A stretch of DNA of 64,000 bases, from IMG/VR virus record IMGVR_UViG_3300006114_000006; one strand, given 5' to 3'. Positions 44,634 through 61,900 of this stretch are shown here, piece after piece (position 1 is the stretch's first letter; each line of letters opens with the position of its first letter). The position numbers and the translations under genes were made by a program. Source of the DNA: an uncultured virus (IMG/VR IMGVR_UViG_3300006114_000006) (Duplodnaviria; Heunggongvirae; Uroviricota; Caudoviricetes). The notes beneath the pieces are model-generated. The model had not been told where the DNA came from and made no database searches. It was given only the letters and a program-made list of their open reading frames with translations.

Positions 44634-46096
44634 TGCAGTGGTTTTATGACGGACAAGTAAGAAGATATTTGACACAAACTATACGAGTGCTCAGTAATTT
44701 TGTGGTCAAATATGGAGATGGAACACTACATCAAGTACCCGTAATGTACGGCGATGCAGATCGTCAAGTGGCCAGCATCATACGTCAAAACAGTGAAAAT
44801 GCTGTTAATAGTATTCCACGTATAAGTGTGTATGTAACTGGTTTAGAACTAGATAGAAATAGGTTAGCTGATCAAACTTATGTAGGCAAGTTGCATTTTC
44901 GCGAAAGAGATATTAACGGAAATAATTATACCGGAAATCAAGGACGTAATTATACAGTTGAACGCTTGATGCCTACTCCTTTTCAATTAAAGATGAAATG
45001 CGATATTTGGACTAGCAGTACTGATCAAAAATTACAAATATTAGAACAAATACTAGTGTTATTCAACCCTAGTTTAGAATTGCAAACCACAGACAACTAT
45101 ATTGACTGGACTAGTTTATCAGTTCTTAATTTAGGAGATATCGTTTGGGATAGTAGACAAGTTCCTGTCGGCAATGATACTCCTATTGATATAGCAACAT
45201 TAAGTTTAGATTCTCCTATCTGGATTAGTCCTCCAGTTAAGGTCAAACATCTTGGTGTTATTACAAAAATTATTACAAGTGTCTATGGGTCCGAAGGAAC
45301 TTATCCGTCTGGGTATGTTGAAGGATTAGGAATAGATCCTGCACTACAATCTGATGGCACTAGTCCGTCATTTAGCAATTTGCTTGCTACTGAAAATGTT
45401 ACAGTTACAGGATTTCCTATAGCAGTATACGACGGCCAGGCAACTTTGTTAGAATCAGGAGGAGGTGTTAATCCTCCAGAACCGACGTTGACTATTCCTA
45501 CTCCGATCAGTAATCCTCAAAGTTGGGAAAGTGTATTCAATTTATTCCCCGGAAAATATGTTGCAGGTTCTAGTATGTTGTATTTGTTGCAACCAAATGG
45601 GACTTACGTTATAGGTACTATTGCTATTAATCCTACAAATCCTGCAATTTTACAAATTAATTATAATACAGATACATTGACTAGCAATACTGGAATTGAT
45701 AGTAACGGATTTTTAAGTACAGATGTAAAAGATTACAATGCCGCTACTAGTTATCGACCAAACAGCCCTGGTACTTTTGATGCCATTATTAATCCTCAAA
45801 CTTATACACCTAACAACCCAATAGCAGGTACACGTTATCTAATTATTGAAGATATAGGCAACACGACTAATACAAATCCTGCTGTCGTATGGGGCAGTTT
45901 AGTAGCTAATGCTAATGACATTATAGAATATACTGGTTCAGTATGGCAAGTTATTTTTCATGCCGCTCTAGAATCAGACACTATGGTATGGCAAACGAAT
46001 ATATACACTGGAGTTCAGTACTTGTGGAACGGGGTTGCATGGGTCAAGAGCTTTGAAGGTGAATATGGTGTGGGCCAATGGAAAATAATATTGTAA
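44633..46096 (+). CDS. 15: Tail sheath stabiliser/terminator (gp15-like) with C-terminal extension
   Basis: FYD.Q.RRY, VPVMYG, P.P..L....DIW....QKLQILEQI..LFNP. Confidence 0.8.
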   Translation: MQWFYDGQVRRYLTQTIRVLSNFVVKYGDGTLHQVPVMYGDADRQVASIIRQNSENAVNSIPRISVYVTGLELDRNRLADQTYVGKLHFRERDINGNNYTGNQGRNYTVERLMPTPFQLKMKCDIWTSSTDQKLQILEQILVLFNPSLELQTTDNYIDWTSLSVLNLGDIVWDSRQVPVGNDTPIDIATLSLDSPIWISPPVKVKHLGVITKIITSVYGSEGTYPSGYVEGLGIDPALQSDGTSPSFSNLLATENVTVTGFPIAVYDGQATLLESGGGVNPPEPTLTIPTPISNPQSWESVFNLFPGKYVAGSSMLYLLQPNGTYVIGTIAINPTNPAILQINYNTDTLTSNTGIDSNGFLSTDVKDYNAATSYRPNSPGTFDAIINPQTYTPNNPIAGTRYLIIEDIGNTTNTNPAVVWGSLVANANDIIEYTGSVWQVIFHAALESDTMVWQTNIYTGVQYLWNGVAWVKSFEGEYGVGQWKIIL

Positions 46097-46527
46097 AAGA
46101 TAGAATAGTTTGTAGTGGTGCATTATTTTATGCTAAATCTACACAACGATTTTTATTACTTCAAAAAAGTCACGGTAAACACGAAGGCACGTGGGGATTA
46201 GTCGGCGGGACAAACATCATAGGTGAAACACCTTGGCAAGGTCTTCAACGCGAAATTAAAGAAGAAATAGGTGCAGTGCCTAAAATAATTAAAACAATCC
46301 CATTAGAAACATTTGTCAGTAACGATAAAGTATTTAATTTTCATACTTATTTGTGTGTAATAGATAACGAGTTTGTTCCTGTCTTGAGTGACGAACACAT
46401 TGGTTGGGCTTGGACTACTGTAGATCGCACACCTAAACCCTTACATCAAGGACTACGTAATAGTTTTAACAGTAAAACTATTCGTACCAAATTACAAACT
46501 ATATTTGACTTAGTTGATCTAGTTTAA
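46078..46527 (+). CDS. NUDIX hydrolase
   Basis: Nudix box G-TNIIG-E-TPWQGLQ-REIKEEIG. Confidence 0.9.
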   Translation: MENNIVKDRIVCSGALFYAKSTQRFLLLQKSHGKHEGTWGLVGGTNIIGETPWQGLQREIKEEIGAVPKIIKTIPLETFVSNDKVFNFHTYLCVIDNEFVPVLSDEHIGWAWTTVDRTPKPLHQGLRNSFNSKTIRTKLQTIFDLVDLV

Positions 46528-47701
46528 TATCAAAGCCTTCGATATATTCTTTCATCAAGGCTGAATTGTGTGCCCAATACTGCTCGTATTCTCCAGTCTG
46601 CTGACACAATCTTACATATTTTTGAAATCTTTCCGATGTTTGTAAACGTTCTTTAGCCAGTGCTGTGACTGTATTCCAGAAAGGCGTATCTTTTTTGCAA
46701 GGACCTACATAGTTTAGTGCAACTAAATTCAACATATCTTCCATACTTTTAAGATAAGAAGTATTAATTCCTCTATTAAAATGCGGTGTTTGTAAATTAG
46801 TACCTTTAATTAATGTTTCAATAAACTCTACAGACAAATTTATATAAAAATGTAACGGCAATGCTTGTGCAGGTTCAAGAAAATATAGTCTGTTACCCAT
46901 GGATAATATGCGTCCATTCATTGCTTCTTTTTTATAATACTGTCTCCAGCTAAATTTTCTTAATTTACTAGCATCAATATTTTTTAATTTAGAAAATTTT
47001 TCAATCGCTTCTTCCTGAGTTGTTATATTTTTATTATATAGATAACCAAAGGCTTTACGATGAGTTAATGGTACTCCAAACATCCAGCCGTCGTCATGTG
47101 GATATGCACTTGTTAAATCTTCGTTATACTCTTTAAAGTCAGGAAATAGTATTACTGAGTTAACTGTTTCAAATTTTGGAAATTCGTATAGTCCACTATC
47201 CATTTCTTCGGCCGACGGTGATCCTCTACAATCGATGATATAGTCAAATTTATGTTGCACTCCGTCGACTAATATCGATACGTGAGTATGATCTTGTGTT
47301 ATGTCTGAGACATTACCGTGTATTTGAAAAAAATTATCGTATAATTTATCAAGTTTGTTGATAACAAATCCGCTAAATTTTTCACTGTTGACATGCAATC
47401 CTGTATGTCCATGCCTTACTAGGAAATTTTTATCATTAATATCTTCCCAGTAGTAACGAGTACCCCAGCGAAGGGTACCATCGAACTCTTTTAATTCTTC
47501 AGTAACAGAAAAATCAATAGCATGATAAAGTAAACTAGGCATTATAGGGCTAGTACTTTCGCCCACAGTAGTTACAGGAATGTCAGGATTGTATATGCAA
47601 TACACATCTATGTGTTTGCATCTATGGAATTTAAATTTATCAAAAATTGCAAGTAATGAAACGGCGCTGGCGGTACCACTACCTATAATGCCTATTTTCA
47701 T
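46499..47701 (-). CDS. Tryptophan-halogenase-like flavoprotein
   Basis: IIGSGTAS, VGES, FDYIIDCRG, GWMFGVPL, GN...FLEPAQA. Confidence 0.8.
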   Translation of the reverse strand: MKIGIIGSGTASAVSLLAIFDKFKFHRCKHIDVYCIYNPDIPVTTVGESTSPIMPSLLYHAIDFSVTEELKEFDGTLRWGTRYYWEDINDKNFLVRHGHTGLHVNSEKFSGFVINKLDKLYDNFFQIHGNVSDITQDHTHVSILVDGVQHKFDYIIDCRGSPSAEEMDSGLYEFPKFETVNSVILFPDFKEYNEDLTSAYPHDDGWMFGVPLTHRKAFGYLYNKNITTQEEAIEKFSKLKNIDASKLRKFSWRQYYKKEAMNGRILSMGNRLYFLEPAQALPLHFYINLSVEFIETLIKGTNLQTPHFNRGINTSYLKSMEDMLNLVALNYVGPCKKDTPFWNTVTALAKERLQTSERFQKYVRLCQQTGEYEQYWAHNSALMKEYIEGFDIKLDQLSQI

Positions 47702-47708
47702 AAAAACC

Positions 47709-48704
47709 TTATTGTACGGTTATAACGCAGTCGTCTGATCCTGACCAATATTGAAAACCACAACTTACTGTGATAGTGTCACCTGGAACAAGATGTGTTG
47801 CAATTAAACGAACAGTTCCTACACCGTTGACTGTTTGTACTTGTTGTTTATTCAAGTGACCTGCCGTAGTTTTTAAATATATAGTTGCATTGTGATCCGT
47901 TATAGGCAATCCATGCTCAGAGCTTGTTTTTGCTGGGGGATTTAAATCGGTAGGAGTTCCTAAGTAAAACGGTAAATCGACATAGCCGTCTGGGCTGACA
48001 GTAGCAGTCTTATTTGTAAAATAAACTTTTGGCATAGTATATACGATTCTGCCAAGCTCGTCGGTGATTACATTTGTGAATTGTTCGCCTGACGATATTC
48101 TTACTAGGCCAGGATCGCTATCGCCCAACGCAACCATCATGTTCCAATCTGATGGATTCATTTCTGCAAACGGAATAGAAATTAAAATCATAGGACTATT
48201 CTTTTGCAAAGACATTGCCCTAACTGGATTTTTCTTATGTAGTTGTGAATTGGCTACTAAATTGTATAATGGGATACCTGTTCTTGTATTCAAAGCAGTT
48301 TGTTGAACGTATCTTACATTTAAATTTCTTACAGTAACTTGGTCAGCTGGGTGAGTGATTGCAAAAATAGCATGATCTGAAAATCCCTCATTGTTGGTAA
48401 TATCTGTCCAATTTATTTCTCCAGAAATTCCTGCTGTTACACCAGGATAGACTCCTGAAGTTTGACTATAAACTCTATGTGTTTCTGTTTCCCATGCAAA
48501 TTCGTCAGCAGGGCTTGGATATCTAACTCCGGCTACTTTTCTAGCAGTAACGGTATTATCTGCTAAACTAGCCCATTCCAACTGCAATTCTGATTTTTTA
48601 TAGGCATCAAATACTGTCCACTGAAATCCAGTGTCAGTAAATTTTATATCTAGTGCTATCAACTGCGAATGTTGAAACTGTATTAAATTTTGAGTTAAAT
48701 TCAT
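47709..48704 (-). CDS. Hypothetical protein with C-terminal Ig-like (Big-1/invasin-like) beta domain
   Basis: 'ATIYLKTTAGHL...VQTVNGVGTVRL....PGDTITV'; AAGGA SD; TAAATA at 48732-48737. Confidence 0.6.
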   Translation of the reverse strand: MNLTQNLIQFQHSQLIALDIKFTDTGFQWTVFDAYKKSELQLEWASLADNTVTARKVAGVRYPSPADEFAWETETHRVYSQTSGVYPGVTAGISGEINWTDITNNEGFSDHAIFAITHPADQVTVRNLNVRYVQQTALNTRTGIPLYNLVANSQLHKKNPVRAMSLQKNSPMILISIPFAEMNPSDWNMMVALGDSDPGLVRISSGEQFTNVITDELGRIVYTMPKVYFTNKTATVSPDGYVDLPFYLGTPTDLNPPAKTSSEHGLPITDHNATIYLKTTAGHLNKQQVQTVNGVGTVRLIATHLVPGDTITVSCGFQYWSGSDDCVITVQ

Positions 48705-48717
48705 GATCTGCTATTCC

Positions 48718-50184
48718 TTATTCCTGTTCAGTATTTATCAAGGAACTCTTACCGTAAACTTCGACATTGTCGATTACAGCAACTTTTTCACTGACAATCT
48801 TAATAGGTATTATTTTTTTCTTTTCTTCTTCGTGTTTGAATACACCGCCCCAGATATCTTGGCGCTCTAATGGTAATCCTTTGCCCTTAATATGGTAAGG
48901 AACATAACCACCTGTTATTTTTTCAATACTTGCGGCAAACAATGGTACGTTATCGCTATAGGCGTTATTGCAACTTGTAGTCCAGAATTCATCTGAAAGG
49001 AACATACATGCACCTTTACAAATATGCAACACTGGACAACTTGGACATTCTGCACGATTACTCCAGTGTGTACTAGTAGTAATTTTTACGTCCTCGATCT
49101 CAGTAATCTTACCACCTAAGTGAGGTTCTCCGTTTTTGTTAATTTCGATAGCACTGACATTTTGGCAAGTAATTACATTGCCGTTTAAATCAAATGCAAC
49201 GGTTCTTTCGTCATCCATGCCGCATTTTTGACCTAAATAGTCTGCTTGCTGATGGGTCAATACTGATTCTGTGAAATTATCAACTTTTTGTAATATGTTG
49301 CCAAAGCCGATTTCACCGTTAGATCCGTAAATTTCTCCGAACGCGATTTTTCTAAATTCGAAATGATCTTGTTTAGTTTGTAAACTGTGTTGTAGGCCAT
49401 CGGCATCATATGCATCTACAAAGGTACCTTCACCTAAACTAACATTGGGATCATTTGTAAAATTAATAAAATAATCAAATATAGCTTTACGACTAAGATT
49501 TTGTCTGTTTAACATTGAGTTAAAACTGATGCGATTTAAAGGACGCAAAATCTGGTATAAATCTAAAATAATTTCACGTTTCTTAGGATCTGCAAATGGA
49601 TCTGGTCCGCGTACATGTTGTCCTGGCCCGTCATGACTGATAGCTACATGGAATTCCATACTGTATAGCCAAGCACAGATTTCTTCTGTTAAAATACTAC
49701 CATTAGTAATAATACTAAAAACTGGTTTCTTTCTCCAATCTTTAAAAAATTCTGCTACTGCTTCGGCCAGGGGTTTTAATGTCTTCCAGTAAACTAAAGG
49801 TTCACCTCCCCAAAATTCAACTCGTAAACCGTCTTCTTCGTTAAACTCTAAAGTCTTAAACATTTCCATAAAATTTTCAATGTCTTTAGCATTAGTTTCA
49901 CGTGGGCGTTCCACAAATTTTTGACTGCAATAATCACAACTATAATTACAACTTAATCCTAGTTGAATTTTTACGTGATTAGTACTGCGAGATTTAATTA
50001 AAGGACGATCTTTATCAAATGGTTTGTATGGTACTCGATTTTCAAAATTATTTGCATAAGCATCGGGATACTCATAGACGAATCCTGTTTCATCGCTTAA
50101 GACATTTTTTTCGTTGTCATAGAAGAACGTTCTTAGATCAGGTGGGTTTGATCCAAACTTTTCTGTCAGTATTTCAAAAATCAT
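48718..50184 (-). CDS. Radical SAM enzyme with SPASM domain (peptide/protein maturase type)
   Basis: CNYSCDYC (CX3CX2C), FWGGEPL, ITNG, ISHDG; SPASM C-X13-G-X4-C...CX2CX5CX3C-X11-C. Confidence 0.93.
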   Translation of the reverse strand: MIFEILTEKFGSNPPDLRTFFYDNEKNVLSDETGFVYEYPDAYANNFENRVPYKPFDKDRPLIKSRSTNHVKIQLGLSCNYSCDYCSQKFVERPRETNAKDIENFMEMFKTLEFNEEDGLRVEFWGGEPLVYWKTLKPLAEAVAEFFKDWRKKPVFSIITNGSILTEEICAWLYSMEFHVAISHDGPGQHVRGPDPFADPKKREIILDLYQILRPLNRISFNSMLNRQNLSRKAIFDYFINFTNDPNVSLGEGTFVDAYDADGLQHSLQTKQDHFEFRKIAFGEIYGSNGEIGFGNILQKVDNFTESVLTHQQADYLGQKCGMDDERTVAFDLNGNVITCQNVSAIEINKNGEPHLGGKITEIEDVKITTSTHWSNRAECPSCPVLHICKGACMFLSDEFWTTSCNNAYSDNVPLFAASIEKITGGYVPYHIKGKGLPLERQDIWGGVFKHEEEKKKIIPIKIVSEKVAVIDNVEVYGKSSLINTEQE

Positions 50185-50202
50185 AAGATTCCTTGTGGTA
50201 TA

Positions 50203-50604
50203 TTAGCAGTTACAGTTACAGTTACAATTACAGTTACAATTACAGTTATAATATACGTTGGTATTAATGTTACAGTTGTAAGTGCAGTTGCAATTACAGT
50301 TGTTTTGTAACCAGTTTTGACCATCGCAATTTGTGCAATTGATGTTATTACAATTATAACAGTTTGTACAGCAAATGTTACCACAATTACAATTATTTGG
50401 ACAATTTCCGTTGTTGCAATTACCCTTGTTATTTGAACGATAGTATGCTCTGTTACGCATTTCGTTCATAGTTGGGTAACTATCACGTTGTCCTGGAATT
50501 ACATATCCATTAAGATTACTCAAATTGCTGTATGGACTGCTGTTAGGCAGTCCAATTTCGCCGTCAATTTGACTAATATAAATAGGACTTGAAGGAGTTG
50601 TCAT
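50203..50604 (-). CDS. Cys/Asn-rich protein, putative radical-SAM substrate / tail-tip protein
   Basis: 21 Cys in residues 63-133, ending (NC)7; AAGGA SD; starts 3 nt after the tail fibre stop. Confidence 0.85.
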   Translation of the reverse strand: MTTPSSPIYISQIDGEIGLPNSSPYSNLSNLNGYVIPGQRDSYPTMNEMRNRAYYRSNNKGNCNNGNCPNNCNCGNICCTNCYNCNNINCTNCDGQNWLQNNCNCNCTYNCNINTNVYYNCNCNCNCNCNCNC

Positions 50605-50607
50605 CGT

Positions 50608-52578
50608 TTATTCCTTGTTAATCTGTGCTTTTAATTCTTTAACTTGGCTTGACAATTCCTTAACTGCTTCAATCACTAATGGTAATAACTTTTCGTACTG
50701 AACTGTCATGTACTTAGCGTCGATTGGAGCTGGTTTGATAATTTCTGGCAGGATTGCATTAACTTCTTGAGCAGAAACTCCAACTTCACGTTGAACAGTA
50801 TATCCCAAATCCTGAGCAGTTTGGTTAGCTTCAAAGTAAAAACCATTTAATGTTTCTAACTTAGCAAGAGCATCTTCAATTTTGCCCAAACGTGTCTTTA
50901 ATCTGTCATCTGAGTAGTAAGCAACAATGTTGTTTGCCGCATAAATTGTACCACCACCACCGTTAGTGTTAGTACCAACGCCTAGCGAACTAAAATAACC
51001 ATATGTACTACCAGCATTCATTGTACCGCCGCCAGTTAAGTTAAACGCTGTTACGCTATTCATTGTGAAAGTTGTAATACCGTTAAAAGTAACTGTACCA
51101 CCAGACTGTCCAACTGTAAAGTTAGTGTTGCTGATTGTAGCAGTACCACCGCTAGCACCAATGTTAACTGCTGAACTTGCTCCAGTAAACAAGTTACCTG
51201 TACCAGCGTTGGTTGCAATGTTAACAGTACCAGTAGCTTGACCGTTGGTCAATAAGTTAAAGTTAACGTTGCTACCACTTTGAATACCAAATGTATTAGA
51301 AGTATTGATATACAACCCTTCTGAACTAACCCAAGCTGGGTTACCGCCACCGCTTGTTGGACCTAATGTACTGCTTGCCCATTGTAATGTGTGATTACTA
51401 GTTCCATATAATAATATGCCGCCGCCGTTGGCAAATGTATCAGCACTACCTGGAGTAATAGCTGTAATTGTACCAGCTACAGGAGTTGTGCCGCCTGTTA
51501 CTGTTACCTGAATACTAGTTCCACTTACAATGTTGCTTATTACATAACTTGTACCGCCGCCGCCTAAACTACCTGTACCGTTAGTTGCACTAACAGCTTG
51601 ACCGTTTACCAAGTTGGTAGTGTTGGGCATACCGGTAATAGTTGCAATCCAAGGACTGTAGTTAACGTTGCTTACAGTGAATGTTAAGTTGTTAGGACTA
51701 TTAGTACCACCAAGTAAGTTACCACCAATAGTAATTGTATCATTGATTGCATAGTTACTTCCTGGATTAACCAATGTAATTGTAGTTACACCAGTATAAG
51801 TTGTACCTGACCCAGTTGTAGTGATGTTAAAAGTTGCACCCGATCCGCTACCACTTGTAGCAAATTGTCCAACACCACTGTATGTACCTGCACCAGTTAC
51901 TTTTGTACCAGTAATACTTGTAAATGTTGTACTACCGCCTAACGCACCACCGATAGTTGTAACAGTACCGCCACCATAAGTAACTGGATTAACATATCCA
52001 ATTTCAATATTTTTATCTTCTGTACGTACTGAACTAGAGTTAAGAACAACTGTTCCGCCTTTTACTAACAATTGATTGTTAATAGTAGTTGTACCAGTGC
52101 TAGAACCAATATTGATACTAGTTGCCGCGCCTGCAAAGTTAACTGTCTGAGTATTTGTATTGTAGATATTGGTGGTACCAGTATTGGTACTAATCAAATC
52201 AGCTGAAAAAGTTCCGTTAATACCAAATTGATTACCGCCTGGGAATGTAATTATACTATAGTTAGTACCATCAGATCCAATAATACAACTAGATCCTGCT
52301 GGCATGGCCAATAAGTTTGTACTAGAACCACCTGGTCCGTTAAACACCGGAGAACTAGGACTACCAGCAATATATCCGCTAGGAGCAGAAAGTGTAACAA
52401 CACCACTAGTGTTGTTAAAATAACTTTGCGACTGTCCTAAAAATAATGTTGGTCCTGGGATAACCACCGTGTACGGTGCAGATCCTTGAAATTCTGTGTA
52501 ACCACCTTGTGCAGGTGTTAACAGAGTTTGTGCTCCGGAAACAATTTCTGTTGCCAGCGATGTATTATAACGTGCCAT
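50608..52578 (-). CDS. Tail fibre with C-terminal intramolecular chaperone (peptidase S74)
   Basis: YSDDRLK...ALAKLETLNG...GVSAQEV...PE...V.YEKLLPLVIEAVKEL. Confidence 0.88.
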   Translation of the reverse strand: MARYNTSLATEIVSGAQTLLTPAQGGYTEFQGSAPYTVVIPGPTLFLGQSQSYFNNTSGVVTLSAPSGYIAGSPSSPVFNGPGGSSTNLLAMPAGSSCIIGSDGTNYSIITFPGGNQFGINGTFSADLISTNTGTTNIYNTNTQTVNFAGAATSINIGSSTGTTTINNQLLVKGGTVVLNSSSVRTEDKNIEIGYVNPVTYGGGTVTTIGGALGGSTTFTSITGTKVTGAGTYSGVGQFATSGSGSGATFNITTTGSGTTYTGVTTITLVNPGSNYAINDTITIGGNLLGGTNSPNNLTFTVSNVNYSPWIATITGMPNTTNLVNGQAVSATNGTGSLGGGGTSYVISNIVSGTSIQVTVTGGTTPVAGTITAITPGSADTFANGGGILLYGTSNHTLQWASSTLGPTSGGGNPAWVSSEGLYINTSNTFGIQSGSNVNFNLLTNGQATGTVNIATNAGTGNLFTGASSAVNIGASGGTATISNTNFTVGQSGGTVTFNGITTFTMNSVTAFNLTGGGTMNAGSTYGYFSSLGVGTNTNGGGGTIYAANNIVAYYSDDRLKTRLGKIEDALAKLETLNGFYFEANQTAQDLGYTVQREVGVSAQEVNAILPEIIKPAPIDAKYMTVQYEKLLPLVIEAVKELSSQVKELKAQINKE

Positions 52579-52600
52579 GTTTTATTCTCTCTTATACTAA

Positions 52601-52939
52601 TTATGATGTCGATGTTTCAATTCCGTAAACGTTAACGTTTACACCAGCAACGCTTGAGCTAGCAACAATGTTTGCACCAGCTGCCATTACAATTCCTGTA
52701 CGTTCAAACACACCATAACCAACTACTGTTGTTAAGTATTCATATGCTTCACTGGCAACCTGAGATGCCGCAGTACTTGCACCTATATATAATCTAATAG
52801 TTGCCGCAGAAGCTGTAGTGTTTGTAAATGAAATGTTATAAACACCGTAGTAACCGGTTGGTACTGTATAGATTAACGAATAAGTAGACTGTGTACCTGC
52901 GTTCAATTGTGTCGTTGCTTTATTTCCTGATCCTGCCAT
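52601..52939 (-). CDS. Small virion structural protein
   Basis: IYTVP...N......IRL...ERTGIV...VYGIE; GGAGA SD. Confidence 0.7.
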   Translation of the reverse strand: MAGSGNKATTQLNAGTQSTYSLIYTVPTGYYGVYNISFTNTTASAATIRLYIGASTAASQVASEAYEYLTTVVGYGVFERTGIVMAAGANIVASSSVAGVNVNVYGIETSTS

Positions 52940-52959
52940 GTTATTTCTCCGTTTTTATT

Positions 52960-55900
52960 TTATCTTGATAAGAAGAATACGGTAGCTACAGGAGCACCGT
53001 CAATTCCGCCTGTGAACAGCATCTTACTGCTAACATAAATTTGATTACCATTTAGGTTACTAATAGTATTACCAGCTATGTATATCTGTCCTGCCGTTAG
53101 TGTATTTACGTTCAAACTACTTGATCCGCCACCAATTTGGGCTGTGATGTAAGATTTAATAGCTTTTTGTGTTGGTAAAATATTGTCACTATTAGCAGTA
53201 AAGTACGGATCTGTACTAAATTGCGTAATCGTTGCACTATTTACACCTAAACTTACTGAACCTAGTGTCAAACTCTGTAATCCAGCTAAGTTAAATGCGT
53301 TGGCATTCAATGTAGCTGTACCAGTCGCTTGTTGAACTCCAAACAAGTTACCAACGTTAAAGTTACCGTCTTGGTCAGTTGATGTAAAGAATACGCGACC
53401 ACCAATATTTGGATATGTTTGGTTAGCCTGAATTGCATTTGCATCAGTAACGTTTGGATAGTTAGTTTGTGTTTGGTTACCTGAGCCAACATACAAGAAG
53501 TCATGTCCAGTTAAACGTGTTTGACTGTATTTCAATCTTGTAGTAATCAATGCACCGTTCGGTGGAGCAAGATAAGTTGTTAGACTTGGACTTACTTGGA
53601 ATGTAGCAGTATAGTTACCTGCTTGTCCTAATTGATTACTTGTAGCAACTAGTTTGTACCATGCGTTAGAAATACTGCTGAACTGTACGTTAGCACCTGC
53701 GGCAGGTAATGCATATAAATTAGCAACGTTAATAAATGCTGTATTCTGGTAGATATCAGCATATCCATCGCCAGTAATACTTGCTGTTGCTGTTGCATTT
53801 CCAGCACCACGACATGGGAAACTTGGGTTACCTAACACACCATCACCTGTACGTACACGAGTTGGTGCTTTGTTAACTTGGTTAGGATCGGTAATAGTTA
53901 ATGTTGGTCCTGTTGTATATTGCATACCAGTTGGAGTACTTGTTGTTAATGTAACACTAGTACCAATTGTTGCCAATGCAGATGAAGTTGCAACTTGGAA
54001 TGTAGTAGATTGAATTGTTGATCCAATTACATAGTAAGTTGTTTGTGTGCTTAATCCGCCAGAGCTTACAGTATTGAATTCAATTGGTTGTAGATTATAC
54101 ATGTTTTCTGTTTGATCTACAGTAATTAAATTCAATGGTCCAACTGTACCAGCTACTGATATGCTACTTGCAGTACCTGCATTAAATGGACTACCATAAT
54201 AAGTTGAACTGATAGTTAGTGTTGTACCTGAACTTGTTACTTGTACATAATAAGTTGTGTTTGCAACTACGTTACCAAACCCAGTAGCAAATGTAATTGG
54301 TTGGCCAATTGTTAAATTGGTTGCACCGATTGTAATTGAATTTCCAGATACGGCTGTTACGGTAACTGTTGTACCAGCAACATACGTAGTTCCAGTAACA
54401 ACACCTTTAGCAAATCCACTGCCTGGTTCAATCATACGTATTTCAGTTAAAGCACCACTAGCTACTTTTGTACGTGCCAACGGTGTTGCACCGGTATGAA
54501 TACTTGCCGCTACTGTACCAGATTGGTTACTTGCGGTTACCCATAGTGGTGTGTAACCAGTTGTTGTAACTAATGGATTACCAAATGATGGAGTGATCCA
54601 ACTTGCGTATGTTGGCAATGTTTGCTGTGTCCAGTTGATACCGTCCCAACTTGTTGCCGCGATGTTTGTACCAATTGTACTTGTCCATGCACCTGTGTCA
54701 TTAACTAATGTAATTACTGGAGATAAAGTACTACTTGCACTTACAGTAATCTGATTGCCTGCAATACTAGCAATATAGTATGTATTACCTGAAATCAAGT
54801 TACCAAATAATGAACCTGCTTGTGCAGTCCAAGATCCGCCAGCGTTAGTAACTACCGCATTGGTTCCACCATAAATTGTACTTACTGATATTAGTGTACT
54901 TCCAACAATTTCAGTAATGAAATATGTCGAGCCGGATGTTAATCCACCAAATGTTGCACCTTCAGTTACTGACCATGATCCATTTCCGTTTGTTACAGTT
55001 AAGTTAGAACCGCCATAAGTTGTACTTACAGTGATTGTACCGTTTACACCCGGAGTTGGAATGCTTGTAACGTAGTATGTTGTACCGCTTGTAATACTAC
55101 CAAAAGCGGCACCTGCTACAAATGTCCATACACCTGTACCGTTAGCAATAGTTACCGATGAACCATTGTATACTGTACTAATTGTAATATTACTGCCTGC
55201 TACACTAGTGATATAGAATGTAGTACTAGCTGTTAAATTACCGCCGCCTAATGTCGCACCAGCTGTTACGCTAACACTTTGACCAGTAGTTGTTACTAAA
55301 GTCAAATCACTTGTGGCACCATACACAGTACCTACAGCAAGCTGGTTAGTACTAATAGTTTTAGTAATATAATATGTGTTACCTGAAATCAAGTTACCTA
55401 CGTTAGTAGCAACTGTAAATGTTTCACCAATTAACATACCGCTGTTAGAGTTAACAGTGATAATGTTTAATGTACCTGTAATACTTGTACTAGTTTGTGT
55501 AAATCCTGAACTTGTACTTACGTTCCAAGTACTACCGTTACCACTACCAGATATATTTGATATAATATATGTTCCAGCAGGAATACTACCACCTGAAATA
55601 ACAGCTCCTGGAGTGATTGTACCTGCACTCAAAGTACCAACAGTTAATATACTGTTAGTAATACTAGAACTTGATAATGTAAATGATCCGTTAGTTGTAG
55701 CAGTTAATGTAGTTGTTTGACTAACTGCTGTGAACACAATAGTTTCACCTTGTACTAAACCAGTAGTTGAGTTCAATGTAATTGTGTTACCAGTACTAGA
55801 TGTAGAAGTAATATTACCAGTTTGGGTCACTGCTGTAAACACGACTGGAGCACCTACCGCCATACCAACAGTTGTACCAACTGTTAACAAGTTACCAGTA

Positions 55901-58900
55901 GCGGCTGTTGTAGTCAATGTTGTGCTAACAATATTACTCGTAAACACTATTGGTTCGCCCACTGACATACCGGCTGTGTTTCCAACTGTAATTGTATTTT
56001 GTGTACCAGTGATTGCACCAGCTGCCGCTGTTTGACTTGGAGTAATTGTCCAGCTTTGTCCGCCAATTGTCTGAGCACTTGAAATAGTTAATGCACTAGT
56101 ATTCAATGTGTATGTACCAGTTCCGCCTGCTGTATAGAAGTTATAAGTACCAGTAGCATTTGACCCAGCAATAGTTGCCGCCGCGCCTCCTGCGACTCCC
56201 ACGGCTAATGGAACTGTTGTACTACCAGGAACATATGAACTTGCTACTACTGTTCCTGATGGGATGCCTGTACCAATAATTAATTGGCCTGCTACGATAC
56301 CTGTTCCAGTATTAACAACAAAAGAACTTGCACCAATAGTACCACCAGATGCCCAACTTGGACTTGCTACTGCACTTGCAGAGCTTGTATTTTGATATGC
56401 AATATAAGCAGTCAATCCGCCTGTTATTGTTGTAGATGGAACTAATGAGCCAGTGTTAGCTACCCATGCATTACCGGTTACAGTAACACTGGTTACTAAA
56501 CTAGTAGTGCTAATAAAGTATTGTCCAGCAGTACCAGGAATATAACCGTTGTATGTTCCGCCACCGATTGTTGCATATAATGGCTGACTTAATGTAATTG
56601 TTGTGTTGGTTGCAACTGAAACAGCAACTACATAAGTGTTATAGAACAAACTACCGCCAGTAATTAATTGTCCTACAGCGAATCCAGTCGATGAACCAGA
56701 TATTACTAGTGTAGTAGTACCAATTGTTCCGCTTACTCCTGTACCTGTACCTACCGCACTACTTGTAGTACTGATTTGTCCAGTAATATATGTACCAGCG
56801 GTAATTGTACCAGTACCGCCTGTACTAGCCAATACCATACCTGGTATTAATGTATTATTGTTGATAGTACCAGTTGTTGTAAGTACATATGGTGTGCCTG
56901 TCAATGCAGTTGAACTAACTACTGTTGCTACGCTGACAATCCACTGACCGGTTGAGCTAGTTGGAGTTGTTGATGAACCGTATGGTGCAACAATAGTTGT
57001 GCCAGCTGTAACACCTGTACCACTTAGAATATAACCTGGTTGAATACCAACACCGCTTGGTGTTGAAGACACAGTTAAAATACCTTGTCCGTTAACTATA
57101 GAAACACTACCGTTGAATGTAACTACTGTGCTTGGAGATGCTGTTCCAGTAATTGTGCTACCTGAAGTAGTTGGATTTGAAACAATATAAGTAGCACCAG
57201 TAGTTATATTTGTACCGCTCAACTGACTACCTGTTGTAATTACACCAGTAGTTGTACCTGCTGGTACAAATACACCAGTTTGTACACCACTTGGATAGTA
57301 CGTGTTCCAAATGTATGAACTTGTAGTGTTAAATTGTGCGCCAGTTAATGCCATTCCAGGTTGTACACTATAAGCACTGGTTGTACCAGTACCAGTAACT
57401 GTACCGCCAATGGTCAATATAGATCCTGCAATCGTTGACGATGTTGAATTAAATGTATTGCTACCAGTAATGTAAGTTCCTGATGTCACATTTGAACCAG
57501 TCAAATACATACCTAGTGCAAACGGACCTAAACCAACTGGTGCAGTTAATGTTGTACCTGCGTTGCCTGCAATACCGTTAGAAATAAACGATGTTGACAA
57601 TCCAATTGCTGTTGCATTAATTGTCTGACTAGCCACTGTAGTTTCAGTCACTGCTGTTGGAACAATAGTATTTCCTACGTTCAAACCGGCTGTACTGCTT
57701 AATGTAATCAAGTTACCACTTGAAGTAGTAGCTGTCATTGTAGGAGTTGGTCCTGTTGCTGTTGCAAAGAACTGTCCTTCTCCGTATGAGATTCCCCAGT
57801 TTTGTGCTAATGGTAAGTATGTACCGTTATTTGCTACACTTGAGTACCAAGTTACACCACCGTTGTTGCTGTATGCAACAATATTGCTACCTGCGGCTAC
57901 TGCAACAAAACGTCCGTTACCATAAGTTACGCTAGACCAGTTAGCAACTGACGGTAATGCACCACCAGTAGTCCATGTTAAACCGTTAGTACTGTAAGCT
58001 GTTGATGTACTGTTAGTTGCGATAGCTACAAACATACCTGTAGTTGTTGCACTAGATCCTGGTCCAGTCCAGCCAAATGCCACAGATGTAAACGCTTGTG
58101 TTGCACCGCTTGGAGCTGTTCTGCCAGTCCATGTAACACCGTCTGGACTAGATGTAATAATAGCACTGGCATTAGATGTTGTTCCAGTGTAACCAACTGC
58201 AACATAAATTCCGTTACCATAAGTTAAACTGTTAAATCCAGCGGATGGAAGTGCGTTACCAGAAGTCCAAGATGATCCTAAATTAGCTACTGTACTATAA
58301 GCTGTTGCTGTAGTTGTTGTAGAAATTGCAACAAATTTAGCACTAGTATCTAATATTGTAATAGTAGGAGTTGCAGTATAACCGTAACCAATGTTAGTAA
58401 TTGTGTAACTGCTGACACCGTAATCTGTCAATGTTGGAGTTGCAGTTGCGGCAGTACCTACGAATGTCAATGACACACCATATGTTCCTGCAGATCCTGT
58501 ACCTGTTGTAAACGTTGGAGCAGTTGATGAAAATGTTCCGCTCGATGTTGCTAGGTAATAGTTTGTAGCTTGAGTTGCACCACTATAATAGTAATAGTAT
58601 GAGCCACTTGTTGCACTCGAACTTCCACTCCAAACAGTTCCACTAAATGGAGCACTGATTGTTACGCTAACGTTTCCGCTATTGAAATAATTTTTACCCC
58701 AAGTGATAGGAGTAATCGCAGTAATAGCACTAGTTACAACTGTTACAGTCGGTGCTGAAGTATATCCAGAACCATTAACTGTAATAATAACTGATTGAAT
58801 TACTCCGTTAAGAACAACTGCTGTTCCTTGGGCACCGGTACCGCCACCACCTGTAAACAATAATGATGGAGCAGTATTATAGTTGTAACCGCCGTTAATT

Positions 58901-61900
58901 ACGTTGACTCCAACTACTTGTCCTAAACTTGTTCCAGTACCAATCACTGCTGTCAACTGAGCACCAGATCCGCCAAATCCACCTAGTGTTACTGTTGCGG
59001 CAGCACTTTGACCTCCACCGTAAACAACGTTTGTAAATGCAGAAGCTGTTAATGCACCACCTGGAGTCCATGTTTTACCGTTAGTGCTAATTGCAGTCGA
59101 TGTACTACCATTGGCAATTGCTACATAATTTCCAGCACCGTATGTAATACTTGACCAGATTGCTGTAGCTGGTAATGTTCTTGCTGTTGCGGCATAACCT
59201 GGACCTGTGAATGAAACATAAGGTTCAATAATATATGCTGTAGTTAAATCTAATGTGTTAACTATAGGAGTACCTGGTACAACATGATCCCAACCAGCGG
59301 CATATAAGCTGACTGTTTGTCCACTAGTTGCTGTTAAACCAGTAATTGCAGAACCGCCTGATGTTAATGCTAGTGTAAACTGAGTTGTACTTGAAATAGC
59401 CTGTACATAATAAACTTGATATGCAGTCAAATTCATATTAGTAGCGGTTGTACTCAAGTAAATTGGCATACCAACATATAATGTTGCAGTACTTGCCACA
59501 GTTAATGCAGTAGTACTTGAACTGGTAACAGTTAAGGTTGCAAATGTTGTACGAATAATTTGTGCAATTTTACTACCGTTAGTATAAGTTAGTATTGACG
59601 CATATTGTCCAACACCTGTACCAGCAGTAATTTGTACTTTCATTCCGTTATATGAACCAGTCAATGCTACGTCGGCTGCCGCAATAGTAATATAACCTAC
59701 TGCACCGCCTTGGCCTACGTTAACAGAACTTACATAACTTGAACCGCCAACACCTAAACCATTGTTTAAGTCAATTAAACGTGATTCAAATACACCAGCA
59801 TCACGGAACTCATCTGCAAAAGAAAGAATGTTATAACCTGATCCACTAATTGTTGGTATAGCATTGGTGTAGTTTGTACCTGCATTTTCGTATTCTAAAC
59901 GTAAAATTTGTGTTGTACTATCTGTAACCACGTTAGTAACTTGAGGTCCGTAACTTCTGTTATTTACAGTACCGTAAATTGGAGTTTCAAATGTGTCAAC
60001 ACCTTCGGCAACTACACCGTATGTACCATATGAACTGTTACCGTTAGTAGCACGAATGCGTCCTCCTAATTCACTCATGTATCCAGCGTAGCTGTAGTAG
60101 TTAAACACTGAAACAAGTTCTGATAATGAACCTGTTCCAGTTGTCCACCAACCGATACCATCGCCGATAACACAAGTATAGTCGTTTGCAACCATTGATT
60201 TGTATCCACCGGCATGCAATGCACCGTCAACTTTGGCGCCAACGCAAGCGTAACCGAACATTGTACAATTTTGTACGAATGTTGAACGTGCATAGACCCA
60301 TGCATTTTGATCGTTTGGTCCAAAGCCTGGATCTAAACTTGCATACGCACCTGCTGTTGGTCGACGTGTTCCATAAGCATTTGCTGTACTTAAAACACCA
60401 GTCAATCCGTTCATAGTTTGATTACGAATACCACATGCATTTCTTACTAGATAGAAGTTTTGTGTTGTAGATCCTGCCACCGCGTTAACATAAAGTTCTG
60501 CGGCACGCATTGATTTCCAGTTACCTGTATAATTAATATCATAAATCAACGCATTGATAAAGTTTGTTGTATCGCGTACACACTTAGCATAGTTATAGTA
60601 GTAGCCTACAGTTAAACTTCCTAACGAACCTGTTGCTAATGTAAATGTTGTTTGTGTACCTGTGCCATATTGAGTTGCACTGATAGTAAATGTTGTTGAG
60701 CTTGGCACAGTTAAAACATAATAAGTAGTACCAGCAACAATATTGCTTGAACCAACAGTACCAGTAAACACTACTGGGTCATTTACTAATAAATTATGTG
60801 CGCCACTTGTATTAACAACACTACCAGATGTTATACTGGATACTGTACCGCCGTAACTTGCTACTGTATAAGCAGATGCTTCTGCGGCCAGGAATGGAAT
60901 GTTAGCACGAAGAATTTCTGTGCCTTGAATTGTTAGAACGTTATCATTGTAAGTTAATGAACCATTAATCATTGGATTATTTAAATATGGCCATGTCACT
61001 GTTGCTCCAGCAGTGGTTGTAGCTGACATACCAGTTACTGTATTAGTAATTGTGTATGCTGTACCACTCTTAAAGCTGTTGGTCAATGTTAATGTTGCGG
61101 CAGGAACTGTTACAGTAATACCAGTAATTGTTCCACCTGATGTTGTTGATGTTACAGCACTTCCGCCTAATGTTGCTGACAATTGGAAAGCTGTTGATGT
61201 TGGATTACCAATAATATAATATGTTGCACCACTAGTATAACCAGTGATACTACCAGCTGAGAACGTACCAGTAATAACAACTGGCTGTCCTACTGTTAAT
61301 GTTACTGAACTTGTTGCACAACTGAATACACCTGTTGTACTAGTAATTGCCAATGTGCTTAATGTTGCGGCAGATTGCAATGAATTAATCCAGTATGTAG
61401 TATTATTCCATAGTCCGCCTGCGTTATTGAATGCCATTGTCATTGTACCAGTTGCTGATATCAATGCCACATTACCGCCACCAAATGTTAAACTAACAGT
61501 AATTGTACCGTTAGTTCCAGGTGTTGGGATACTTGCAATATAGTATAACTGGCTTGGAACAATATTACCAAATACTGTACCTGTGAAGTACACTTGCTGT
61601 CCAACTGATAAGCCTGTTGTAGTTGCAACTGTAATTAAATTGCTGGTTGTTGTAGTAGCTGTTGCTGTTACAGAACCTAAAGCTGGTAAACCTGAGAATG
61701 TAATTGGCATGTTAGTTGGCATACCTGCTGTACTTCCAAGTGTTACAATATTGCTAGATGTTTGTACACCAGCTACTGTAGTTGAATAACTACTTGATAC
61801 AAATCCTAATGACAATGTTAAACCTTGTCCTGAACTTGTAGTTGTTGTTGCTTGTGCGGCACTGTATAAACTTGTGTTGTTCCAGTTACCACCAGATGTT

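Follow-up and report, generated by a model that had tools for sequence, protein, structure and literature searches.

Does a phage use the radical chemistry of RiPPs (peptides that are made by ribosomes and modified after translation) to build the tip of its tail fibre? The question is raised by a cassette of five minus-strand open reading frames (ORFs) in a 64,000-nucleotide (nt) stretch of DNA (hereafter, the window) from an uncultured member of the Caudoviricetes (IMG/VR record IMGVR_UViG_3300006114_000006), a freshwater, T4-like phage. In the direction in which they are read, the ORFs encode a 656-amino-acid (aa) tail fibre with an S74 domain, a 133-aa Cys/Asn-rich protein, a 488-aa radical SAM/SPASM enzyme, a 331-aa protein with an Ig-like part and a 400-aa flavin-dependent halogenase-family protein. 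The intergenic gaps measure 3, 18, 13 and 7 nt, as the initial annotation of the window had recorded when it proposed that the enzyme modifies the Cys-rich protein at the fibre tip. Taking the sequence comparisons together with analogy to known systems, we consider it fairly probable that the cassette matures a tail-fibre tip protein, the SPASM enzyme acting on the Cys-rich module and thioethers being the most likely products. The earlier proposal is now backed by the pairing of the two genes, by fibres that carry the Cys module themselves and by an adaptor domain shared with adhesins; the modification itself we infer.

The Cys-rich protein and its radical SAM/SPASM neighbour

The enzyme gene (48718..50184; minus strand, like the other features of the cassette) gave Pfam, NCBIfam, PHROG and PDB profile matches. 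Pfam Radical_SAM (PF04055) was detected with an E value of 2.3e-8 (34.8 bits against a cut-off of 29.5), and the SPASM model TIGR04085 scored 30.6 bits against a cut-off of 27 over residues 321-397. The CX3CX2C motif (residues 79-86, 49927-49950) and the complete seven-Cys SPASM motif (residues 321-405, 48970-49224) noticed earlier were both found: C79, C83 and C86, together with the SPASM Cys at 321, 340, 380, 383, 389, 393 and 405, were invariant in 11 homologues reaching down to 45% identity. By these hallmarks, the enzyme is a member of the SPASM subgroup of the radical SAM superfamily. It also matched phrog_1802 (E 7e-62), and its family comprised 2290 proteins at E <= 1e-20, with hosts that include T4-like freshwater and marine phages, Burkholderiales siphovirus prophages and cultured Achromobacter and Ralstonia phages.

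The enzyme did not belong to the PapB family (NF047865; 74.1 bits against a cut-off of 340, E 1.2e-20, residues 72-188 only), to QhpD (TIGR03906; 69.2 bits against 453, E 2.7e-19), to the radical SAM/SPASM RiPP maturase family TIGR04463 (42.2 bits against 525) or to the anaerobic sulfatase maturases (anSME; TIGR03942, 44.8 bits against 349, residues 75-393). Its solved relatives by PDB profile were 8vpo, CteB (5wgg) and anSME (4k36), of which only anSME aligned along the full enzyme, SPASM part included (residues 73-395). These nearest models and relatives (PapB, QhpD, CteB, anSME and presumably 8vpo) modify peptides or proteins.

The Cys-rich protein (50203..50604), encoded 3 nt after the S74 fibre gene and 18 nt upstream of the enzyme gene, contains 21 Cys and 38 Asn residues, with all Cys lying within residues 63-133. 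Profile and hhalign comparisons delimited an N-terminal adaptor domain of about 55-56 aa (50437..50604), which is followed by a Cys/Asn-rich core (residues 57-133, 21 Cys; 50203..50436 including the stop codon). The core ends in (Asn-Cys)7 (50206-50247), directly before the stop codon. Asn-Cys dipeptides occurred 19 times, compared with 8.7 +/- 2.0 in shuffles of the core, and none of 5000 shuffles reached 19. The richness in NxxC motifs that the initial annotation had stressed did not hold up, as the 12 motifs present are no more than composition gives (8.5 +/- 1.9 in shuffles, with 284 of 5000 reaching 12). Across 523 positions in 100 proteins, the spacer residue between Cys was N in 60%, A in 21% and D in 12% (93% together). 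Because the spacer varies in this way, what is conserved is an Xaa-Cys unit, with a small or an amide/acid residue, and not NxxC.

We identified 75 distinct homologues of the 133-aa protein, which have in common a non-repetitive Cys core with invariant Cys, following the pattern GNCNNGNC...NCxNCDxQxWLQxNCNCACTYNC...(XC)n. The sole Trp of the 133-aa protein, W98, lies inside the conserved WLQ motif. A likeness to cytochromes, seen as a single PDB-sequence match of the Cys-protein family profile, was judged spurious.

We followed the pairing of enzyme and Cys module in loci drawn from viral contigs and from prokaryotic genomes, one for each species (numbered with the prefix L), 155 of which had distinct enzyme sequences. 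The forward test covered the loci whose upstream flank was 3 kb or longer and asked whether a CxCxCxC run (four or more alternating Cys) lay in an ORF on the same strand, no further than 3.5 kb away. An alternating-Cys run lay beside the enzyme in 77 of 102 loci, compared with 2 of 2104 opposite-strand control ORFs, so enzyme homologues mostly lacking a Cys-rich neighbour, which the initial annotation had named as the outcome that would speak against it, were not what we found. Most of the 25 misses keep a homologue of the 133-aa protein that was dropped by the rule (overlapping ORFs or a shorter run). The clear exceptions include L001 (Ralstonia phage RSP15), where the fibre end has only NCQCGN; further exceptions are L052 and L053 (without downstream flank), L113, L136 and L160. 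Among the most distant loci (34-40% identity), pairing was seen in 7 of 9, and the remaining two have upstream flanks shorter than 1.9 kb.

In the reverse test, viral contigs were searched with a degenerate DNA pattern for NCNCACTYNC, and the enzyme was sought by tblastn (E <= 1e-10) within 6 kb. An enzyme homologue was present in 76 of the 77 contigs, 48 of which were new relative to the forward loci; the lone exception has 234 nt of flank on one side. The pairing of enzyme and Cys module is not due to chance and is near-obligate in both directions.

Cys modules at the ends of tail fibres

The same module was found in proteins annotated or positioned as fibres. One of them is gp028 of Achromobacter phage JWF, a fibre whose annotation includes a T4 gp36 and a Hint domain. 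It contains NCNCDCNCNCSC directly before the start of the Hint domain, and the enzyme gene lies two genes downstream. In prophages of Limnohabitans, Polynucleobacter and other Burkholderiales, a J-type tip protein is commonly followed by a 200-620-aa protein ending in (XC)n. Then come mostly an Ig-like protein (in its place, a 233-286-aa protein in L101, L104 and L163), oxygenase-like or other small proteins, the enzyme and a block of small genes that, compared by eye, is like the lysis genes annotated there in JWF. A tail-fibre PHROG match was obtained for two of the three prophage (XC)n proteins scanned.

What follows (XC)n differs between homologues. There is nothing in the window, Peptidase_S74 in L047 and L083 (E 1.4e-7), a Hint-like domain in L075 (a weak Pfam match) or, in other loci, a domain of about 173 aa. 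Self-cleavage of S74 or Hint would therefore leave (XC)n as the mature C-terminus. The extension of about 173 aa (L042:6468-7376, L045:6490-7398, L069:4683-5576 and about 30 more) starts with CSKIIC[AT]KL[YF] and has a hydrophobic end. No Pfam or PHROG family was found for it and wider protein searches gave weak leads only; it might serve as a further removable chaperone or anchor the protein in a membrane.

A profile built from the adaptor domain (the first 56 residues) matched 477 representative proteins. Among the best 150 of these, nearly all matches start at residue 1, and 73 proteins were Cys-rich and 77 were not. We scanned 16 of the 77 non-Cys proteins, among which we found GP38 (PF05268; protein P0250, E 1.1e-9), Gly_rich_2 and tail-collar domains, as well as the PHROG annotation 'tail fiber protein; host specificity'. 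Aligned by hhalign, the adaptor profile and P0250 matched with 97.2% probability (E 3e-11). For 20 relatives of P0250 the start lay in the fetched locus; seven of these began at most 2 nt after, or overlapped, an S74 fibre gene and 11 overlapped the end of a fibre finishing in ...GNVTAYGT, giving a fibre-adjoining layout in 18 of 20. The Cys-protein/enzyme pair itself came directly behind an S74 fibre, the gene that the initial annotation expected ahead of it, in 13 of the 71 loci having an upstream ORF. By sequence, the 133-aa protein is of the gp38 type in two respects: it shares its N-terminal domain with adhesins, and its gene comes directly behind that of the fibre. Cys-type and glycine-rich GP38-type adaptor proteins were also seen together on one contig (L062 with L252; L056 with L259), and one phage may carry alternative fibre tips.

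The fibre gene of the window (50608..52578) encodes a C-terminal S74 intramolecular-chaperone domain at residues of about 556-656 (Pfam Peptidase_S74, PF13884; residues 556-613, E 2.7e-8, 34.4 bits against a cut-off of 22), and the PHROG matches of the fibre were long tail fibre distal subunit families. The sequence SDDRLK at residues 556-561 holds a Ser...Lys dyad, which we take to be the S74 cleavage-site residues; after self-cleavage at S556, the new end would be ...NNIVAYY. Fibres without an S74 domain, encoded by the upstream ORFs of L258, L260, L264-L267 and L270-L275, end in ...SGNLTVxGNVTAYGTx. Compared by eye, these ends coincide exactly with the cut point of the S74 fibre (in the window, between ...NNIVAYY and SDDRLK, 50913-50950), and the gene with the adaptor domain starts within one or two bases of them.

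Competing explanations and a proposed maturation route

Several observations weigh against maturation of a fibre tip. In many T4-like contigs the pair lies amid oxygenase and small genes, away from fibres. Neither GP38 (PF05268) nor Gp38_N (PF21721) was among the ten Pfam families detected at E <= 1 on 35 family members, including the 133-aa protein itself. The AlphaFold model of that protein, built with 35 homologues, had a mean predicted local distance difference test score (pLDDT) of 49.9, with the Cys module below 50, and was unusable. All matches to characterised maturases fell far under their cut-offs and, the sulfatase maturase excepted, mostly covered the radical SAM core; the chemistry is therefore not readable from homology, and Cys oxidation of the sulfatase-maturase kind would suit the fold of the enzyme equally well. 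Both the modification and the presence of the 133-aa protein in the virion are predictions from the genes.

The alternative that survives best, which we nonetheless regard as unlikely, is that the tip is metal-binding or disulfide-laddered and that the enzyme carries out another reaction (Cys to formylglycine, epimerisation or formation of a C-C bond), so that no thioethers arise. A metal-binding tip may be compared with T4 gp37, which forms a needle with His-coordinated iron, and Cys alternating with small residues would suit metal coordination. The alignment of anSME, alone among the solved relatives, over the whole enzyme also fits this account. In the literature found, 8vpo appears only in a paper on radical SAM cyclopropyl synthases and in one on RiPP recognition elements. 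However, CxPxR, the target motif of anSME, does not occur in the 133-aa protein. Plain metal binding would not need a dedicated enzyme, yet the pairing is near-obligate. The spacers, moreover, are overwhelmingly N, D and A, and NxxcB, PapB and QhpD are known to form thioethers on Asn and Asp.

We give still less credence to the possibility that the 133-aa protein and the enzymes make a non-virion product, such as a secreted or intracellular RiPP-like factor directed against the host or competitors, next to a fibre gene by accident. The many contigs that hold the pair in islands with 2-oxoglutarate (2OG) oxygenase and other non-structural genes would accord with such a product, and so would the hydrophobic end of the extension class described above, as a possible membrane anchor. 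Against it, the same Cys module terminates true tail fibres and is fused to S74 chaperone domains, which are typical of trimeric fibres; the N-terminal domain is the one seen in gp38-type tip proteins, whose genes come right behind fibre genes; and neither a signal peptide nor a leader-type cleavage site was evident in the family alignment when inspected by eye. That the Asn-Cys ORF is open by chance, running across a hexanucleotide repeat, with the enzyme gene an unrelated auxiliary metabolic gene, is refuted by the family alignment (75 distinct homologues with a conserved non-repetitive core and invariant Cys) and by both association tests, even though an imperfect AAYTGY repeat does encode the (NC)7 tail.

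Under the preferred reading, maturation of a fibre tip, the 133-aa protein would be built like a gp38-type adhesin, its adaptor docking on the fibre encoded just upstream and its distal module being the 77-aa Cys/Asn-rich domain that ends in (Asn-Cys)7. Because the two co-occur obligately, we take the Cys module to be the probable substrate of the enzyme, which would work on it in the cytoplasm of the infected cell, before or during fibre assembly. A hydrogen atom would be abstracted from a neighbouring Asn, Asp or Ala, and the resulting carbon joined to the Cys sulfur to give a ranthionine- or sactionine-type thioether; enzyme class and precedents are what make thioethers the most likely chemistry. 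Such cross-links would lock the tip in a rigid form that is indifferent to redox state. The 331-aa protein could be a co-inherited helper or an extra part of the tip.

Two further points bear on how the enzyme might recognise its substrate. Prophage fibres match only query residues 62-131 of the 133-aa protein yet keep the enzyme, and because fibres with the Cys module alone retain it, recognition of a leader peptide is unlikely. According to the available text of PMC12373016, PapB requires a carboxylate next to the acceptor carbon and accepts even a C-terminal carboxylate, which makes the constant C-terminal place of (XC)n worth noting.

A wider proposal, which we advance tentatively and hold with somewhat less conviction than the reading for the window itself, is that many phages build the receptor-binding end of their fibres by radical chemistry. 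A dedicated SPASM enzyme would staple an (Xaa-Cys)n tract that in every case forms the exposed mature C-terminus, either at a stop codon or once an S74 or Hint domain has removed itself (C-terminal domains of a third kind are also seen). The staples might run between the three fibre chains, and lineage-specific oxygenases and halogenases would decorate the tip.

Partner genes, genomic setting and known systems

The flavoprotein gene at the end of the cassette (46499..47701) had been described as encoding a halogenase-like enzyme. Membership in the family was upheld (Pfam Trp_halogenase, PF04820, E 1.3e-31); the catalytic Lys and the WxWxIP motif were not found. In the alignment with RebH, which is weak at this point, Arg78 occupies the position of what we take to be the catalytic Lys (K79 in RebH/PrnA); WMFGVP replaces WxWxIP, presumably the halogenase hallmark, and EPAQA replaces EPLEA. 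The catalytic column holds Lys in nine of nine canonical relatives and Arg in three of three members of the window's clade. Because Arg replaces the catalytic Lys, halogenation is not expected in the window, and the flavoprotein is probably, to judge by its sequence, a diverged family member that no longer halogenates. Halogenase-family genes in the enzyme loci form two clades. The canonical clade goes with Trp-ending Cys proteins (11 of 15 distinct Cys proteins from halogenase-bearing loci), and the Cys protein of L047 has a Trp end after predicted S74 cleavage; in the window's clade, all three Cys proteins end in Cys.

The label Ig-like, given earlier to the whole 331-aa protein (47709..48704), applies to its C-terminal third (residues 225-331, 47712-48032) and not to the remainder. 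In an AlphaFold2 model of the protein (pLDDT 81), this part is an Ig-like beta-sandwich, with a VIA Z of 10.9 and a root-mean-square deviation of 2.2 over 92 residues to 8q2h_A (GH2 Ig domains), a Z of 9.9 to intimin (1f02_I) and a Foldseek match to intimin at E 1e-5; as modelled, it has an Ig-like fold of the Big_1/invasin type. Residues 1-224 had no fold match among the matches listed, which were filled by the Ig domain, and protein searches with the 331-aa protein yielded weak leads only. The Ig-like neighbour anticipated in the initial annotation was recovered as 37 distinct BLAST homologues in the enzyme loci, with the last 60 residues best conserved. In prophages, these homologues usually come directly after the (XC)n fibre.

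Cassettes of other lineages differ in their accessory genes. Genes resembling 2OG-Fe(II) oxygenases are common in them (L131:4399-4956, L172:2936-4780, L026, L063, L067 and L073) and absent from the window's cassette. These oxygenase ORFs, located upstream of the Cys protein, gave weak matches to Pfam 2OG-FeII_Oxy_5/_3, one of them above the cut-off, and the typical C-terminal motifs are visible. In L012 (4609-7698), L013 and L014, the enzyme is followed by genes resembling those for PP-loop ATPases and asparagine synthases (Pfam Asn_synthase, E 1.2e-6), and the Cys proteins are of the (Asp-Cys/Ala-Cys)n rather than the (Asn-Cys)n kind. Amidation of Asp to Asn in the repeat is conceivable, by sequence, in loci of this type.

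Upstream of the S74 fibre gene lies a gene for a 112-aa protein (52601..52939, minus strand), whose position is conserved in the window's clade. It has a weak tail-fibre PHROG match (phrog_11338, E 2.2e-5) and homologues in L003, L008, L011, L020 and L021. Before it stands a fibre-like ORF of 3638 aa (52960-63876, minus strand) that is rich in Thr, Gly and Ser and has a GTG start, with the frame open to 63999. No PHROG match at E <= 1e-5 was obtained for this ORF; its counterparts in relatives show about 25% identity to the 656-aa S74 fibre. The same-strand run of genes continues uninterrupted from the 3638-aa ORF through the flavoprotein gene and meets a plus-strand NUDIX gene head-on. At their 3' ends, the flavoprotein gene (minus strand) and the NUDIX hydrolase gene (46078-46527, plus strand) have 29 nt in common (46499-46527). 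Past the NUDIX gene, we found genes for a gp15-type sheath stabiliser, a virion structural protein, a head-tail adaptor and a tail sheath, in agreement with the virion-structural context described earlier.

The whole virus record comprises 101,891 bases and has one radical SAM gene, and an enzyme with 100% protein identity is encoded on a 153,700-base IMG/VR contig. Among cultured phages, neither megablast with the cassette nor tblastn with the 133-aa protein (low-complexity filter on) returned a match. A scan of 46000-53200 for sigma-70 promoters and terminators gave the same result as shuffles and is therefore evidence neither for nor against separate transcription units. The T4 late-promoter consensus TATAAATA occurred twice in the whole window, compared with 8.6 +/- 3.2 expected, which we judged not informative; the source phage probably relies on a different late-promoter motif.

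The bacteria that a phage can infect are determined by its receptor-binding tips, and to our knowledge the making of such tips is credited to folding and chaperones alone. If the wider proposal is correct, these tips would be the first RiPP-like structural proteins of a virion to be cross-linked by an enzyme and would open a new axis of host-range variation. A widespread enzyme able to change how the tip is covalently connected would place a post-translational layer on top of host recognition and particle stability. RiPP-type radical SAM chemistry would then reach beyond small peptides to the proteins of the virion, and enzymes that accept a leaderless folded substrate would be on offer.

Among known tips, the closest in layout is the gp37-gp38 tip of the T2/S16 type, in which a small protein encoded after the distal fibre gene combines an N-terminal attachment domain with a low-complexity receptor-binding module. 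Like gp38, the 133-aa protein has an N-terminal domain in common with a PF05268-bearing protein; unlike gp38, its distal module is rich in Cys and Asn rather than glycine and comes with a dedicated radical SAM enzyme. The S74 chaperone of endosialidases and tail fibres is found in the window on the upstream fibre and, in L047 and L083, directly after the Cys module; we know of no connection between S74 domains and enzymatic side-chain cross-linking. With RebH, PrnA and the viral VirX1 (PDB 6qgm), the flavoprotein of the window shares the halogenase fold and family, but it is about 110-150 aa shorter than these enzymes and its partner Cys protein lacks a terminal Trp.

On the enzymatic side, the phage enzyme shares the SPASM class with the PapB/PapA, NxxcB/NxxcA and QhpD/QhpC systems, and PapB and QhpD are its best NCBIfam matches. 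In the reactions of NxxcB and QhpD, the sulfur of a Cys is joined to an Asp, Glu or Asn residue at the carbon adjoining the side-chain carboxylate or amide. PapB likewise links the sulfur to the carbon beside a side-chain carboxylate (PMC12373016, in its available text). In contrast to PapB and QhpD, the phage enzyme scores far under the family cut-offs and matches in the radical SAM core only. Its predicted substrate also differs from those of PapB, NxxcB and QhpD in being a folded virion-type protein, without an evident leader, in which Cys alternate with single residues.

The initial annotation had known of no characterised example of such a system. For viruses this still holds in the literature searched on radical SAM/SPASM enzymes and phages (supplements not covered), where we found no report of a virus structural protein modified in this way; the one phage paper there that names a radical SAM maturase labels the gene, in its available text, as antibiotic-synthesis (PMC12801897). 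Beyond viruses, there is an archaeal precedent with a protein substrate: according to the available part of the paper, CrpC puts ranthionine links into the Cys-rich protein CrpA of Methanococcus voltae (Dieter et al. 2026, PMC13692751), and the word 'phage' occurs there zero times. As in the phage cassette, a SPASM radical SAM gene stands beside a gene for a Cys-rich protein, not a short peptide. Unlike the phage cassette, CrpC/CrpA is archaeal and cellular, and the motifs of CrpA (ACAGM, CAVD and others) are not of the (Xaa-Cys)n kind. By its sequences, the cassette would combine a known kind of system, the SPASM thioether-type maturation of a Cys-rich protein, with what appears to be a new application, the fibre tip of a virion.

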